A DNA stretch of 64,000 nucleotides from Deltaproteobacteria bacterium UBA4427 (GCA_002390675.1 DGPZ01000195.1:67095-131094), one strand, 5' to 3'. Positions 2,384-60,772 are shown, numbered from the stretch's first letter. Notes: generated from the sequence alone by a model not told the origin. Numbers and translations are program-made.

Positions 2384-3652
2384 CTAACAACAGCCGAGTT
2401 CGCGGCCCAATTCTAGTGCAGTCTTGGACTGGTGCAGGTCTTCTAGCGCACGTCGCTCGATCTGTCGGATGCGTTCTCGGCTGACCCCAATGCGATCTCC
2501 TATTTGCGCAAGCGACGCGGGTTCTTCGCCGTTAAGACCAAAACGGGCTCTAATGACCAACTTCGCACGGTCATCGAGGATGGGAAGCATTTCTTCCACT
2601 CGTCGGCCAATAGCTTCGTTGTCGAATTTTGCGTCGGGATCGGGGTCGGACTCCGCTGCAAAAGTGTCCTCGATTGTGAGGTTTTCGGTTCCGCCCACAA
2701 TACTGTGACTCGAAATTTCGGGACTTAAGCTGCGTCTAAGATCATCTCCCAGTGAGTCGTCGAGCCCCATGATTTCGATCAGATCGAATGGGGTGGGTTC
2801 CGAGGAGGATGCAGTTCGATGCAACTCTTCAAGCCGTCGGAACGCTCGTTGCTGATCCTGAACCGGACTCGGGATTCGAATCGTTCGAGAGTCGTTTGCG
2901 ACTGCTCGTACGAGTGCTTGTTCGATCCACCAGATGGCGTAGGTGGAAAACTTATATCCACGCCGGAAGTCAAACTTCTCCACGGCTCGGATCAGCCCAA
3001 CATTGCCTTCTTGGATGAGATCGATAAATGCAACGCCTCGATTTCGGAAATCCTTGGCACAGACAACGACGAGCCGAAGATTATGCTGAATGAAGAGATT
3101 CTTCGAATCTGTCAGGCGAGCGAGTGCGTCGTTCGCGTCTCGAAGATGAGGTTGGTCCTCTAGAGGCAAGCGTCCGCTGTGTCTCCGGCTGGAAACATTG
3201 AGCTCTTCCTGGATGGCGAGAAGAATCGGAAGAGAGATATCCGAAGCCAAAATCTCTTGGGCAAGCGCTTTACGCTGGCCTCCGGATTTACCTTGTCTGG
3301 CTGCCGAAAGTCGCCGTAGGAGAACTTCCACCCGTCCCATGGCTGCATCGACTCGTTCGTTGATGTTCTTCGTCGTTCCATCGCGGTGAAACTTCGAAAG
3401 GGCCCCGGTGACAAGTCCGCGAGCACGGCGGTCGTTCCAGCGCTCCATCAGTCGTTGCGCGACATCTGGAATTTGAGCGAGTGCCTCGCGCAGACTGGCT
3501 TCCGCACCTTCCATATTTACGAAGAGGCGGTTTTGCTCCTCCGTCTCAAGAACGGGAGTGTCGTAAATATCGTCGAGGTAGCTTTGGAGGATCTGCCGGT
3601 CTCTGGGCTCGAGGTGGGCGGCTTGCGCTTCCGTAGGGTTCTTGGCGAACAT
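2384..3652 (-). CDS. RNA polymerase sigma factor, sigma-70 (RpoD/RpoS-like) family
   Basis: Region 2: DLIQEGNVGLIRAVEKFDFRRGYKFSTYAIWWIEQA. Region 4: LAQIGDRIGVSRERIRQIERRALEDL. The track start is TTG 3688; ATG 3652 (MFAKNPTE) has a GGAGA about 9 nt upstream and is preferred. Confidence 0.9.
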   Translation of the reverse strand: MFAKNPTEAQAAHLEPRDRQILQSYLDDIYDTPVLETEEQNRLFVNMEGAEASLREALAQIPDVAQRLMERWNDRRARGLVTGALSKFHRDGTTKNINERVDAAMGRVEVLLRRLSAARQGKSGGQRKALAQEILASDISLPILLAIQEELNVSSRRHSGRLPLEDQPHLRDANDALARLTDSKNLFIQHNLRLVVVCAKDFRNRGVAFIDLIQEGNVGLIRAVEKFDFRRGYKFSTYAIWWIEQALVRAVANDSRTIRIPSPVQDQQRAFRRLEELHRTASSSEPTPFDLIEIMGLDDSLGDDLRRSLSPEISSHSIVGGTENLTIEDTFAAESDPDPDAKFDNEAIGRRVEEMLPILDDRAKLVIRARFGLNGEEPASLAQIGDRIGVSRERIRQIERRALEDLHQSKTALELGRELGCC

Positions 3653-3676
3653 TTTTTCTGTCTCCGTGTTATCAGC

Positions 3677-3688
3677 TTGTCTAGACAA
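3677..3688. promoter_or_regulatory. perfect 12-bp palindrome TTGTCTAGACAA in the divergent sigma / MerR-like promoter region
   Basis: Read directly from the sequence. It lies 25 nt upstream of the preferred sigma-factor ATG, inside an AT-rich island in a roughly 60% GC window. Confidence 0.45.
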
Positions 3689-3728
3689 TGATACATATAT
3701 TTCGTCCTGTAAAGATAAAATCTGTACA

Positions 3729-3750
3729 TTGTCTAGATATTGTCTAAGTG
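3729..3750. promoter_or_regulatory. two tandem 11-bp direct repeats (TTGTCTAGATA / TTGTCTAAGTG), candidate MerR/LitR/CarH-type operator
   Basis: Exact 11-bp phasing. The reverse complements TATCTAGACAA and CACTTAGACAA both fit nAnnTnnACAn. A related site, CGGTCTAGATG, sits at 3782..3792 over the regulator start codon. Confidence 0.45.
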
Positions 3751-3789
3751 AATTAGTCCCCCGGGGAATTCTCGTTTTGTCCGGTCTAG

Positions 3790-4575
3790 ATGGCCCAGGA
3801 GAACTTCACACTGATGAACGAGGCCCTAGAGTCGGCACCTCTAATATCCGCACTGGGAGGGCGATCGATGAGCGATGAGCAAGACGGACAAGAACGGTTT
3901 CCCGTCCGCCTAGCCGCTCGGCTCTCAGGGATCGCGGCAGAGAGGATTCGCTCCCGGGAGACGCGTCACCATGCTGCCGTCTCGCCCGCTCGAAGCTGCG
4001 GAGAAGGAAGGCAGTATTCAGCCGCCGATCTAAAGCGGCTCCGACTGCTCGGGAGAGCGGTTGCGTCTGGTCGTCGTATTGGAGACATCGCGACGCTGGA
4101 TGATGCAGTATTGACGGACCTGTTAAGAGAAGGAACCGAGCACGATTGGGAGGCTGGGCTGATGCCGATCTCCTCCGAGCGTATGGCCACGGGAATTATT
4201 AGGTCTCTACTCCTTGATCGACTCGACTCAATCCGGAGTTCGGATGGCGTTGGACCTCGGATCATTTTCGCAACGCCGAGTGGTGAGCGCCGCGATCCGG
4301 GGCTTCTCGTCGCGAGCCTGGTCGTAGCAAGCAAAAGATCCGAGGTGGTATTCCGGGGCGCTGAAGTTCCCGTAGAAGACTTTAATCTCGCAGTGGAAGG
4401 AAGCCGAATAAACGTGTTTGATTTGGGGATAGTGACCGAAGATTCGATCGATGTAGCGGGCTGCTTTAGGAATGTTAAGCGAAGGCTCGACAAGCGAGCT
4501 GTTTTCGGGGGCGGGATACGAGGAAACGACTACGCGTCTACCCAGCAGCCATGGGTAAAGGGAGGAACATCATGA
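3790..4575 (+). CDS. MerR-family transcriptional regulator with a C-terminal B12-binding-like (LitR/CarH-like) domain lacking the His ligand
   Basis: HTH segment: FPVRLAARLSGIAAERIRSRETRHHAAVSPARSCGEGRQYSAADLKRLRLLGRAVASGRRIGDIATL. C-terminal Rossmann-like segment: PRIIFATPSGERRDPGLLVASLVVASKRSEVVFRGAEVP, with ExRxxG where ExHxxG is expected. The N-terminal start is uncertain (MNEAL or MSDEQ are possible). Confidence 0.7.
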   Translation: MAQENFTLMNEALESAPLISALGGRSMSDEQDGQERFPVRLAARLSGIAAERIRSRETRHHAAVSPARSCGEGRQYSAADLKRLRLLGRAVASGRRIGDIATLDDAVLTDLLREGTEHDWEAGLMPISSERMATGIIRSLLLDRLDSIRSSDGVGPRIIFATPSGERRDPGLLVASLVVASKRSEVVFRGAEVPVEDFNLAVEGSRINVFDLGIVTEDSIDVAGCFRNVKRRLDKRAVFGGGIRGNDYASTQQPWVKGGTS

Positions 4576-5555
4576 GGGTCGCGGTGATTGGCGCGGGAAT
4601 AGCAGGCCTAAACGCCGCCCGACAACTCGAGGCTGCAGGGATGGAGGCCGTGCTATTCGAAAAGGCGCGCGGGGCCTCCGGGCGACTTTCAACGCGCCGT
4701 TCTGACTTCGGTGCATTCGACCACGGTGCCCAGTACTTCACGGCACGCGATGATGAATTCCGCAACCAGGTCGAAGCGTGGCTCGCCGAAGGGGTTGTGG
4801 AGAGGTGGAACGGTCGAATCGTTCGCCTCTCGGGAGGGGGAGAGTCAACTGAGGGATCGCCGATTGAGCGTTATGTTGGGAGTCCCGGTATGAGCGCGAT
4901 TGCGCGCGACCTTCGCGGTGATCTCAATATATCGCTCGGGGTGCGTATCGAATCAGTGAAGCGGGTCGGGAATCGATGGACGCTGACTGCTCACGATGGA
5001 TCTGAATTTCCTGATTTCGATTCACTTGTTATTGCCGTCCCTGCACCGCAGGCTGTCCCTTTTCTGTCTAGCGTTCCGGAGTTCGATCGCGAGGTGCGAC
5101 TCGTGAACATGGCACCTTGTCACGCGGTGATGGTTCGATTCCAGAAATCCTATGATCCAGAATTCGACGCGGCCTTCGTTGATTCTGAGTCCTTGTCTTG
5201 GGTCGCGAGGAATAGCTCGAAGCCGGGGCGAGGACCGGAGGATTGTTGGGTACTGCATTCAACCGTTGAATGGAGCGCCTCGAATCTTGACGCGGATCCA
5301 AATGACGTGACGAAATCACTGCTTTTAGCGTTCCAAGAGGCCGTCGGAAGCACGCTCCCTCCGACTGATTTTTCCGCGATGCACCGATGGCTTTTGTCCC
5401 GCTCTTTGCACCCTTTACGATCGGGTCCGCTCTGGGATGCCGACCAAAGCTTGGGAGTGTGTGGCGATTGGACCATCGGCGATCGCGTCGAAGATGGATA
5501 TATGAGCGGGTCTAGACTCGTGCGTCGAATCCTCGACGATAAGTGTGCCTCATGA
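4572..5555 (+). CDS. NAD/FAD-dependent oxidoreductase (renalase / amine-oxidase-like, photolyase-associated)
   Basis: MRVAVIGAGIAGLNAARQLEAAGMEAVLFEKARGASGR is a GxGxxG plus acidic-residue motif. AGGGAGGA RBS precedes ATG 4572. The start overlaps the regulator stop. Confidence 0.8.
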   Translation: MRVAVIGAGIAGLNAARQLEAAGMEAVLFEKARGASGRLSTRRSDFGAFDHGAQYFTARDDEFRNQVEAWLAEGVVERWNGRIVRLSGGGESTEGSPIERYVGSPGMSAIARDLRGDLNISLGVRIESVKRVGNRWTLTAHDGSEFPDFDSLVIAVPAPQAVPFLSSVPEFDREVRLVNMAPCHAVMVRFQKSYDPEFDAAFVDSESLSWVARNSSKPGRGPEDCWVLHSTVEWSASNLDADPNDVTKSLLLAFQEAVGSTLPPTDFSAMHRWLLSRSLHPLRSGPLWDADQSLGVCGDWTIGDRVEDGYMSGSRLVRRILDDKCAS

Positions 5556-6967
5556 GTCTTGTTCGCGGTCTGCATTGGTTCCGGAATGATCTCCGGCTTC
5601 GTGACAACACCACACTCTTGGCACTCGCTGATCGAGTAGATGAGTGGCTTCCCGTCTTTATTTTCGATCCCGGTTTCCTCGGCGACGACCCGGATCTGCC
5701 GAGAGTACGTTTTCTGAAGGATTGTGTTTCACGGCTCCGGGATGATTTGAGCAGCAGAGGCGTGGCTCTTTGCATTAGAGAGGGTGACCCGGCTGAAGTT
5801 CTTACGCGACTGGTCGACGAAACGCGATCTGAAATCGTATCGTTCGGCGCAGCGGATACTCCACTCGCCCGGCGCCGGGATGAAGCGGTCGGAGCTGCAA
5901 TCAAAAAGGTTGGGGCGAGCACACTCGTGATCCGAGATCACACGGTCTTCGGTCCCGAGGAGATTCGAACGAAGCAGGACGGCGTTTATTCAGTCTATAC
6001 GCCTTACAAAAACGCTTGGTGGGCCCGATGGTTCGAGGCGCCTCGTCATGCGGCTAAGCGCGTTCGTCTCCCGGCGATCGCTCTCGAGCTCAAATCCGAC
6101 AATCTGCAGATTGCTCTCTCGTCTTCAACATCTTCGACATCGAAGGTTGGGCTCCCGGCAGGAGGTGAGATAGCGGCCGCTCGTCGACTGAAATCATTCC
6201 TCACGGATAGCATTTCGGACTATGAGGTGAGTCGCGACTTCCCCGCGGTTGACGGGACTTCGAGGTTGTCTCCGTATTTGAGATTTGGCGTCATATCGCC
6301 TCGAAGATGCTTCGACGAAGCACTCGCGTTAGGTGCAGCGCAGCCAGCTGCGATGGAGGGGGTTCGGAAATGGCTCGACGAGCTTGTCTGGCGTGAGTTC
6401 TACGCGATGGTGCTGGCGAATTCGCCACGGGTACTGACACAAAATTTCCGGCGTGAATACGATCATCTGGAATGGTCCGGGAGCGATGCCGAATTCGAAG
6501 CATGGCGTTTGGGGAAGACGGGGTACCCGATCGTTGATGCGGGTATGCGGCAACTCGCGCAGACAGGCTGGATGCACAATCGCGTTCGCATGATCGTTGC
6601 GAGCTTTCTTACGAAAGATCTTCTGATCGATTGGCGGAGAGGGGCTCGGCACTTCTTCGATTCGCTGGTCGATGGAGACCCAGCCTCGAATAGCGGTGGC
6701 TGGCAGTGGGCAGCATCGACGGGGACGGATAGCCAGCCCTATTTCCGGATTTTTAATCCGACGCTTCAGGGCCAGAAATGGGACCCTGAGGGTATTTACA
6801 TTCGCCGGTTTATTCCTGAGCTTCGGGGGATTGAGACTCGCTTTATCCACGCGCCGTGGAAGGCGAAAGAGCCTCCGATCGACTACCCGAGCCCGATTGT
6901 AGATCATTCGATTCAACGCGAACGGGCGCTTGATGCATACCGTTCGGCACGTGCGAAGGGTGCATAG
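5552..6967 (+). CDS. phrB: deoxyribodipyrimidine (CPD) photolyase, class I
   Basis: WFRNDLRLRDN, SRLSPYLRFG, WREFY and TGYPIVDAGMRQLAQTGWMHNRVRMIVASFLTKDLLIDWRRGARHFFDSLVDGDPASNSGGWQWAASTG...YFRIFNP. ATGA start/stop overlap with the upstream gene. Confidence 0.95.
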   Translation: MSLVRGLHWFRNDLRLRDNTTLLALADRVDEWLPVFIFDPGFLGDDPDLPRVRFLKDCVSRLRDDLSSRGVALCIREGDPAEVLTRLVDETRSEIVSFGAADTPLARRRDEAVGAAIKKVGASTLVIRDHTVFGPEEIRTKQDGVYSVYTPYKNAWWARWFEAPRHAAKRVRLPAIALELKSDNLQIALSSSTSSTSKVGLPAGGEIAAARRLKSFLTDSISDYEVSRDFPAVDGTSRLSPYLRFGVISPRRCFDEALALGAAQPAAMEGVRKWLDELVWREFYAMVLANSPRVLTQNFRREYDHLEWSGSDAEFEAWRLGKTGYPIVDAGMRQLAQTGWMHNRVRMIVASFLTKDLLIDWRRGARHFFDSLVDGDPASNSGGWQWAASTGTDSQPYFRIFNPTLQGQKWDPEGIYIRRFIPELRGIETRFIHAPWKAKEPPIDYPSPIVDHSIQRERALDAYRSARAKGA

Positions 6968-7483: not shown

Positions 7484-7619
7484 AGTGAGTCCCGTGGGCA
7501 GAATTTATTATTTCGTCCTCTAAACCTTAGGTTTCGAGATCACCGAGGCAATCCAACGCGAAAGAATTTCCCTACCGCGCAGCTTCTCGAACGAAGTTCT
7601 CCAAGAAACGGATCTTGAT

Positions 7620-60500: not shown

Positions 60501-60772
60501 CGACCGTCTAGACTGCTTCGGATCACCCACGGAGAGTTCCCCCGGCCAAGATGCGGACGGCGATCGAAGCCGGCGCGATCGATGACCGCAGAGGGGAAGA
60601 CCTGATTCTTCACAAGGACCAAAAATTCTAAGGTTGGATACTGTTCGATCTGTGCTCGGAAGTCTTCGGGTTGCTGCGCGAGCCAGAGTCGAAATCCAGC
60701 GAATGTGAGGAGGGGGAATGTGATCAGGAAGATCGCGCAAATAACGACCAGGCGTTGAATGACGGTCTTCAA
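57524..60772 (-). CDS. 1082-aa membrane-anchored multidomain protein: cytochrome c + PQQ/SGL-type beta-propeller + DUF1080 (3-keto-disaccharide hydrolase-like) domain
   Basis: N-terminal TM helix and heme motif CSTCHS. The propeller region carries GLAVVDDGIYV...NGLGFSPDGELFATDNQGDW. The C-terminal DUF1080 pattern is GWRLLFDGENFEGWK...GNSGIFYLV...GHIVLQDHGDPVWFRNIKIREL. Confidence 0.85.
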   Translation of the reverse strand: MKTVIQRLVVICAIFLITFPLLTFAGFRLWLAQQPEDFRAQIEQYPTLEFLVLVKNQVFPSAVIDRAGFDRRPHLGRGNSPWVIRSSLDGRPRILAAALAPELWLAYSTETASIHQFWNGDIDYTGPVYDARHGREPTSRGSAYLRAPLETAWRIQQEGEWKPAEIQWRGHGFSPDGDALWIRFDVFAPNGPKRTITEWPEREIAVKLPGATLTRRFEITDGPPVALILNNIILTPATTMGLTKREDLYVFPPKIKNASIRRDFAGAMVDLAPPDQLTAAASLFADYDCSTCHSTRERIVGPAWSEVALRETGSNRDIATKMLAIRIREGSKGRWGGAEMPAHPDISLEVAATLARSILDTPPADAPTSPAETDGAEATWSFRGDSLAPPESLHPSLRSHEIKSPDFTPLVGGLAWLPDGRLGVSTWDPDGAVFAIDGWADPKASPSIVRIAEGLHEPLGLAVVDDGIYVMQKHEVTRLLDHNGDDWIDEYRTVANDWPVTSNFHEFGFGLEARDGALYGSLSACVLNGGKSCREQTSARGRVFRVALDEDENQPKAIEYLASGFRTPNGLGFSPDGELFATDNQGDWLPSSKLIHVEKGRHYGWRGPGVEISDEEVSPPALWLPQSEIGNSPTEPLFLTRGPYAGQVIFGDIYNGGLKRAALERIDDTMQGAAFHFSAGLLGPVNRLLAKPEGDGFVVGQVGSHGNWGESDKRHFGIEIVDMGQDKAFEPLRMSIQSDGFEIEFTRPLAKEGELAASDIVLRDWFYIPSQIYGGPKYDLRDLSITHVRLSEDRKQLRLVVPDLKTDRIVYLRLPESIRSESGETLWVREAWYTVNAIPPNDVSSDLNDELPATANQLSDEERKMGWRLLFDGENFEGWKIYGAKDDATPYWEIDDEAFHFTRDVSFAGLIWNHINPFTPGAIDLMTREKFSDFELAIDWRISAGGNSGIFYLVPNEESSLSWDYAVEMQVLDDAAHPDGQIDLHRAGDLYDLQSFAQAAARPVGEWNTARIRVEGERLQHWLNDVLLADIVRGSPAWDEAIAASKFDGTEGFGRARSGHIVLQDHGDPVWFRNIKIRELAK

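Follow-up and report, generated by a model that had tools for sequence, protein, structure and literature searches.

A candidate CarH/LitR-type operator with a conserved palindromic core, between a sigma factor gene and a photolyase operon that is headed by a decayed CarH-like regulator, in an uncultured member of the Myxococcota

CarH is a model B12 photoreceptor and also serves as an optogenetic tool. Here we describe a candidate operator of the CarH/LitR type in a stretch of 64,000 nucleotides (hereafter "the window"; GCA_002390675.1, DGPZ01000195.1:67095-131094) from Deltaproteobacteria bacterium UBA4427, a metagenome-assembled genome of the Myxococcota (G000; 4.86 Mb, 59% G+C), where it separates a sigma factor gene on the minus strand from a plus-strand operon encoding, in this order, a MerR-like regulator, a flavin adenine dinucleotide (FAD) amine-oxidase-like protein and a cyclobutane pyrimidine dimer (CPD) photolyase. 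Known CarH operators are built of 11-bp units with the consensus nAnnTnnACAn, one of which embeds the promoter -35 element (PMC8156234; PMC9304148), and the operator of B. megaterium comprises three direct repeats (DRs) and one pseudorepeat (PMC8156234; PMC9304148). The flexible way in which CarH reads its DNA is an active topic, and in M. xanthus the paralogue CarA is independent of B12 and reportedly acts as a functional repressor, two dimers of which occupy the operator (PMC9304148). The class II LitR proteins of Pseudomonas (PplR1/PmlR2) have an operator of the form T(G/A)TACA-N12-TGTA(C/T)A; they keep the four-helix bundle, and one member works with a light-oxygen-voltage (LOV) partner (PMC9758184). 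In Streptomyces, the CarH-family regulator LitR is paired in a light response with a dedicated sigma factor, LitS, of the extracytoplasmic function (ECF) type (PMC11519972). We found no publication describing the module reported here in Myxococcota, and PMC9304148 makes no mention of photolyase.

The conserved part of the intergenic region is a 21-bp near-palindrome, TGTAAAGAT-AAA-ATCTGTACA, which consists of two inverted 11-mers set 1 bp apart, each fitting nAnnTnnACAn. From its sequence, conservation and genomic company we consider it likely that positions 3677-3750 are the binding region of a CarH/LitR-type repressor lying over two divergent promoters, that this repressor is an intact CarH encoded on another contig (C122) and acting in trans, and that light would release it. 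The elements of this region, in window coordinates, are as follows.

3708-3728, palindromic: putative core operator, a 9-3-9 near-palindrome of 21 bp
3707-3717, minus strand: left 11-bp unit TATCTTTACAG of the core; its TTTACA is the predicted -35 hexamer of the sigma-gene promoter
3719-3729, plus strand: right 11-bp unit AATCTGTACAT of the core; its TGTACA is the predicted -35 hexamer of the upstream operon promoter, P1
3729-3739, minus strand: first tandem 11-mer TATCTAGACAA, which fits the consensus; a lineage-specific extra unit
3740-3750, minus strand: second tandem 11-mer CACTTAGACAA, a partly conserved extra unit
3677-3688, palindromic: TTGTCTAGACAA, overlapping half-sites TGTCTA and TAGACA, which cover the predicted -10 hexamer and start site of the sigma-gene promoter
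3685-3690, minus strand: CATTGT, predicted -10 hexamer of the sigma-gene promoter, 17 bp from TTTACA; columns A(C/T)AATG are conserved

Seven independent syntenic loci were found by searching for homologues and inspecting their contigs; each has the sigma factor gene on the minus strand, then the regulator, amine oxidase and photolyase genes, followed by an SRPBCC and a YbgA-like gene. In an alignment of their intergenic regions with that of the window (eight loci in total), where the background within the clade amounts to 55% invariant columns, 18 of the 21 columns of the palindrome are invariant, against 3/11 for the first tandem 11-mer, 7/11 for the second, 5/12 for TTGTCTAGACAA and 6/11 for CGGTCTAGATG (3782-3792, see below); the start codon of the sigma factor gene (CAT on the plus strand) is invariant as well. 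These counts identify TGTAAAGAT-AAA-ATCTGTACA as the conserved core, of which the first-pass annotation, made from the window alone, had noticed only the TGTACA. To judge from this pattern, the palindrome is the ancestral core of the putative operator.

That annotation had proposed a CarH operator in a divergent promoter rich in GTCTAGA-type sites, with emphasis on the two adjacent 11-mers. The sites are present where it placed them (TTGTCTAGACAA at 3677-3688, TTGTCTAGATA at 3729-3739, TTGTCTAAGTG at 3740-3750 and CGGTCTAGATG at 3782-3792), except that TGTACA, given as 3724-3729, lies at 3723-3728; it is the only TGTACA of the 64-kb window. All four TTGTCTA matches of the window fall inside one 70-bp stretch. 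When the intergenic region 3653-3867 was shuffled 5000 times with its dinucleotide content preserved, TnnACA was expected 1.53 times and is observed 8 times, a count reached by none of the shuffles (0/5000); nAnnTnnACAn is observed 5 times with 0.42 expected (P = 0.0002), and TAGACAA 4 times with 0.04 expected. Nowhere else in the 4.86-Mb genome do two 11-mers fitting nAnnTnnACAn directly adjoin each other. By our own estimate about 2-3 such pairs would be expected genome-wide by chance, and it is the location of the pair that is notable. The word GTCTAGA is over-represented in the window as a whole (11 occurrences, 4.4 expected).

The consensus that had been given for the 11-bp units is indeed the published one, and the 11-mers immediately flanking the tandem pair misfit it, as had been stated. 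One unit further along this strand, still in 11-bp register, the left unit of the core (3717..3707, TATCTTTACAG) does fit, and the second tandem 11-mer lies 33 bp (three 11-bp steps) from it. The tandem 11-mers are thus in exact register with the left unit, and the minus strand of 3707-3750 can be read as DR-DR-pseudorepeat-DR, which resembles the three DRs and one pseudorepeat of B. megaterium. The orthologous loci retain only the two outer units of this tandem, and across the genus only the inverted pair is found: apart from the window, only the sister locus L037 preserves TnnACA of the first tandem 11-mer, and that of the second persists in 7/8 loci, with TATTGTC (3738-3744) invariant within the clade. 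TGTACA and the second tandem 11-mer together form TGTACA-N12-TGTCTA, which is likewise retained in 7/8 loci. For TTGTCTAGACAA, the left half is retained in 4/8 loci and the complete palindrome occurs in the window only. On the opposite strand TTGTCTA reads TAGACAA, a TnnACA half-site, and TCTAGACAA forms the right half of the boxes that precede the intact carH genes on C122 and in the nearest relative, G017. The GTCTAGA-type sites are thus genuine copies of the half-site and not a separate motif; by sequence they are extra half-sites, mostly specific to the lineage of the window. What stood of the first proposal is therefore the kind of element, the conserved gene arrangement around it, the link to CarH and conservation upstream of orthologous clusters, whereas the sites that had been emphasised are not the conserved core.

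The region shares with class I CarH/LitR systems (Thermus thermophilus, Bacillus megaterium, Myxococcales) the 11-bp units, a unit lying over the -35 hexamer (predicted here), pseudorepeats and a position in the promoter of carH itself. It differs in that the conserved core has two inverted units over two divergent promoters, where class I operators have 3-5 tandem units, and in that the putative targets are a sigma factor and a photolyase operon and not carotenoid genes. Inverted TGTACA-type half-sites over a (here predicted) -35 hexamer and a photolyase in the regulon are reminiscent of class II LitR. However, TGTACA-N12-TGTCTA of the window has one mismatch to the class II operator, the spacing found throughout the order is N9 with outward-facing halves, and the window protein has lost most of the four-helix bundle; the strict pattern T(G/A)TACA-N12-TGTA(C/T)A has no match in the whole G000 genome. 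The pairing of a CarH-family regulator with a dedicated sigma factor is also seen in LitR-LitS (PMC11519972); LitS, however, is an ECF factor, while the window encodes a 422-aa protein of the sigma-70 family with RpoD-like regions 2 and 4. As in the CarA/CarH system of M. xanthus, there are two paralogues per genome, a common operator type, palindromes in the operator and one paralogue that would be independent of B12, but unlike CarA the window protein is shortened in several modules, is under relaxed constraint and has relatives with other in-frame deletions.

In about 22 of 28 related genomes a CarH homologue has the box (consensus TTTGTMAAGAWAAWATCTRTACAAA) in its upstream region, and across the genus the box lies between the orthologous sigma factor gene and carH-amine oxidase-photolyase. 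A position weight matrix (PWM) built from the other genomes only and then run on G000 reported three strong sites (scores 36, 28.5 and 26; next best 15.6), namely the one in the window and two that flank the intact carH on contig C122, at 160 bp on its upstream side and 550 bp on its downstream side. A degenerate pattern searched in 5 genomes gave 10 sites, 9 of them within 0.6 kb of a CarH-family gene, with 0 matches of the control pattern. In the uncultured Myxococcota order to which these genomes belong, the box pattern occurs in 73/193 genomes and the control pattern matched once; in other genera, a carH gene lies no more than 1.5 kb away at 14 of the 30 box sites sampled. The other neighbours of the box (loci L052-L081) include genes for photolyase, sigma factors of the same type, Fe/Mn superoxide dismutase and fasciclin-domain proteins, and further PF09859 DNA-damage oxygenase, ABC1 kinase, wax-ester synthase/DGAT, a PAPS-reductase-domain protein and AhpC-TSA_2 proteins; a small membrane protein adjoins the box in other genera and also the box on C122. 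Among 41 genomes the box is present in 0/11 without a CarH homologue and in 23/30 with one, a co-occurrence for which we give no P value because related genomes are not independent. The occurrence of the box is thus tied exclusively to CarH-linked or photoprotection genes. Some genomes of the order carry four or more boxes.

The gene adjacent to the box had been taken for one encoding a plain protein with MerR and B12-binding domains, which does not describe it. Alignment of the window regulator with its orthologue from G017 (316 aa, 82% identity over the aligned part) revealed that it lacks 54 residues of the four-helix bundle, amounting to the loss of three bundle helices, and that its Rossmann domain is 28 residues short at the C-terminal end. 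In an alignment of 59 homologues, the Wx9EH motif reads Wx9ER (His in 53/59), ExHxxG reads ERRDPG with Arg in place of the axial His (His in 56/59), and the Trp of the helix-turn-helix (HTH) is replaced by Arg (Trp in 53/59); Arg at the axial His and at the HTH Trp is found in the window regulator and its sister L037 alone, and both proteins also have Arg for the His of Wx9EH. A Pfam scan of the window regulator gave no B12-binding match, and its MerR_1 score is 21.5 bits (cut-off 21.6) versus 46-49 in intact relatives. Other in-frame deletions were found in L038, which lacks the HTH, and in L040, which lacks most of the B12 domain, so that, by sequence comparison, the regulator gene has suffered at least four independent in-frame deletions in different lineages (bundle, C-terminus, HTH and B12 core). 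The ratio of nonsynonymous to synonymous substitution rates (dN/dS) within the clade is 0.5-0.77 for the regulator, 0.09-0.15 for the sigma factor, 0.17-0.25 for the oxidase and 0.06-0.23 for the photolyase. As judged from its sequence, the window regulator has lost residues and helices needed for binding of adenosylcobalamin (AdoCbl); it probably no longer senses light and has probably lost the ability to bind DNA as well.

All four deletions preserve the reading frame. The invariant C-terminus of the regulator (...VKGGTS) encodes GGGAGG and the ATGA junction of the oxidase gene, and the frame seems to survive because these last codons carry the ribosome site and the start of the next gene; we infer that it is kept for translational coupling and not for the function of the regulator.

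G000 and G017 each have one second, intact CarH. That of G000 (C122:457-1359) contains WVNKRMGIASEH and GEPHELG, i.e. both Wx9EH and ExHxxG are present, and it matches MerR_1 with 49.3 bits, B12-binding_2 with 28.8 bits (above the cut-off) and B12-binding with 26.8 bits (below the cut-off of 32.1, E = 5e-6). Its gene (locus L042) is flanked by two boxes, at 297-317 and 1909-1929, the upstream one in its own promoter, and this intact C122 CarH probably works the operator of the window. A degenerate copy of the box with AAATCTGTACA-N12-TGTCCA is seen at position 1773 of C122, and the downstream box precedes genes for a 78-aa membrane protein, a homologue of which adjoins a box in another family (L057), and for an alpha/beta hydrolase.

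The right half of the box reads T(G/A/T)TACA in relatives, where a TATAAT-like hexamer follows 17-18 bp further downstream, just before carH; the left half, complementary to TTGACA or TTTACA, faces the sigma factor gene. Since the TnnACA cores of the two inverted units coincide with the predicted -35 hexamers TTTACA (minus strand) and TGTACA (plus strand), a CarH oligomer would block both promoters. In the dark, AdoCbl-loaded CarH, likely the C122 protein acting in trans, would bind the inverted pair and occlude both -35 regions. In the window, two extra half-sites in 11-bp register with the left unit would extend across the spacer and -10 hexamer of P1, and two more, overlapping each other, across the -10 hexamer and start site of the sigma-gene promoter; the units at 3729-3750 and 3677-3688 would thus lengthen the contact over the P1 spacer and the sigma start site and probably tighten repression in this lineage. 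Light would free CarH from the DNA, leading to expression of the sigma factor and of the oxidoreductase-photolyase operon, and the sigma factor may then drive other promoters, possibly including a second operon promoter, P2. Taken jointly, we propose, tentatively and as possible rather than probable, that the palindromic CarH box of the order governs a photodamage regulon with a non-ECF sigma factor at its head, and that at this locus the operator has outlived the local regulator, whose gene is now an ATGA-coupled leader, while the paralogue acts in trans.

P2 and the remaining features of the locus are listed below.

3805-3832, plus strand: P2, a predicted sigma-70-like promoter for the operon, TTCACA-N16-TAGAGT, the sole promoter-scan match
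3758-3766, palindromic: CCCCCGGGG, a G+C palindrome directly downstream of the P1 -10 region, conserved in the clade
3782-3792, plus strand: CGGTCTAGATG, which lacks TGT/ACA and is thus no operator unit; it lies away from the start codon
2384-3652, minus strand: sigma-70-family factor gene (422 aa; Pfam regions 2 and 4; RpoD-like, not ECF)
3868-4575, plus strand: degenerate CarH-like gene, first in the operon (235 aa)
4572-6967, plus strand: genes for the FAD amine-oxidase-like protein and the CPD photolyase, each with an ATGA overlap with the preceding gene

Both hexamers of P2 are invariant in 8/8 loci, its spacer varying in the most distant locus (L036), and 28 of the 32 columns of the surrounding block (3801-3832, which ends 36 nt upstream of ATG 3868) are invariant within the clade, presumably because the block is promoter-like. 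The -35 hexamer of P2 lies inside an 11-mer (3801-3811, GAACTTCACAC) that likewise fits nAnnTnnACAn. When the P2 motif was sought across G000 as a marker of a sigma factor regulon, only the window copy was found, which gives no hint of such a regulon. An Rfam scan of 3600-3950 returned no match, so the conserved leader corresponds to no known RNA. At the place of CCCCCGGGG, other members of the genus have CCC-N2-5-GGG(G); taken over the clade of the window and the genus (loci L003-L023), the palindrome has the form CCC-N0-5-GGG(G).

The regulator almost certainly starts at ATG 3868, directly preceded by a GGGAGGG Shine-Dalgarno sequence, rather than at ATG 3790. The counterpart of the latter in G017 is in a different frame, which runs into a TGA; L037 has a 1-nt deletion between the two positions, and L040 lacks an ATG there. 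For the same reasons we rejected the idea that the conserved block 3790-3835 is coding, either as an N-terminal extension or as an upstream open reading frame. The recorded form of the regulator protein, found on 37 contigs, has 235 aa. With the start at ATG 3868, CGGTCTAGATG, which had been thought to overlap the ATG of the regulator, does not overlap it; the orthologues have CAATCTCGATG, CGGTCTTGATG and CAGACTCGAGG in its place. The ATGA stop/start overlaps are at 4572-4575 (regulator/oxidase) and 5552-5555 (oxidase/photolyase), which places the start of the oxidase at ATG 4572 (MRVAVIGAG) and not at 4551; the photolyase probably starts at ATG 5552 and not at GTG 5543. The sigma factor matches RpoD/RpoS-type models over residues 170-411, and one of its orthologues also has region 3. 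A search of genome contigs for related loci yielded G017 only. The reported 16-nt motif common to 3698-3713 and 7509-7524 is real (15/16 identical); the copy at 3698-3713 is kept in the window and L037 only, and the one at 7509-7524 (largely kept in L034, partly in L038) was considered as a CarH half-site and rejected, as it reads TCTAAA. The spacer between the SRPBCC and ybgA genes has a separate conserved block, ACCTTAGGTTTCGAGATCACCGAGGCAATCCAACGCGAAAG. Palindromes GTCTAGAC also occur at 5510-5517 and 60506-60513.

Among the other explanations of the box, one is that it is only a pair of back-to-back -35 hexamers with an A+T-rich, UP-like spacer, with no repressor involved and the extra sites neutral. 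In relatives its half-sites TTGACA/TTTACA and TRTACA do stand at the proper distance from -10-like hexamers; however, a pure pair of -35 hexamers would explain neither the spacing fixed at N9 with conserved flanking AGA/TCT, nor boxes where there is no divergent gene pair (C122:1909; G017 C63:18208), nor the restriction of the box to CarH-linked and photoprotection genes, its absence without CarH and the single control match in 193 genomes, and we regard this explanation as unlikely. Another is that the adjacent MerR/B12-like protein is itself an AdoCbl-dependent photoreceptor whose operator is formed by the two tandem 11-mers. This agrees with the fit of both 11-mers to the CarH consensus, with the position of the gene, which corresponds to that of orthologous intact carH genes in the genus, and with the retention of Wx9EH and GERHDLG in orthologues P0006, P0007 and P0012. 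Nevertheless it is quite unlikely, given the substitutions by Arg of the axial His, the Wx9EH His and the HTH Trp, the loss of 54 + 28 residues, the lack of a B12-binding Pfam match, the weak MerR_1 score, the high dN/dS and the poor conservation of the first tandem 11-mer. Reading of the box by another factor, either the divergently encoded sigma factor in an autoregulatory role or an unrelated repressor that co-occurs with carH, appears very unlikely: although most members of the genus have the sigma factor gene beside the box and genes of the same type adjoin boxes elsewhere in the order, boxes are found at carH loci without a sigma factor gene (C122; L063-L067, L071, L073), the half-sites match the recognition unit of CarH, and sigma factors do not read palindromes. 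Finally, an accidental accumulation of A+T-rich words in an intergenic region itself rich in A+T (32-45% G+C, compared with 59% for the genome) is exceedingly improbable: CGGTCTAGATG does look like a chance occurrence, as do the GTCTAGAC copies at 5510 and 60506, which lack the TGT/ACA flanks and lie in coding sequence, but the dinucleotide-preserving shuffles never reach the observed counts and the core is conserved across genomes.

Several observations nonetheless weigh against repression by a CarH/LitR-type protein at this region. In the window, P1 and the predicted sigma-gene promoter score below the threshold of the promoter scan, and P1 has a poor -10 hexamer (AGTGAA or GTGAAT). P2, the best promoter of the operon, lies 80 bp downstream of the core and has only a single unit, so that the operon may not be directly occluded. 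Seven of the 30 genomes with a CarH homologue have no exact match to the box, and most of the sites singled out by the first-pass annotation are not conserved and may therefore be neutral. Moreover, the inverted arrangement with a 1-bp gap is unlike the tandem repeats in the solved Thermus CarH-DNA complex, so the geometry of binding would have to differ from that of the complex.

If the region is indeed a CarH-type operator, the palindromic box found across the order, with its fixed 1-bp gap, would provide a defined sequence for studying how a CarH oligomer reads inverted units. The decay of the local regulator beside a conserved box would be a clear case of retention of a cis-element after loss of its regulator, and it cautions that domain-level annotation alone is insufficient to infer B12 photosensing. 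As the box marks genes for the sigma factor, photolyase, superoxide dismutase, fasciclin-domain and other proteins, it would extend the control by CarH from carotenoids to DNA repair and a sigma factor cascade in marine, uncultured Myxococcota.

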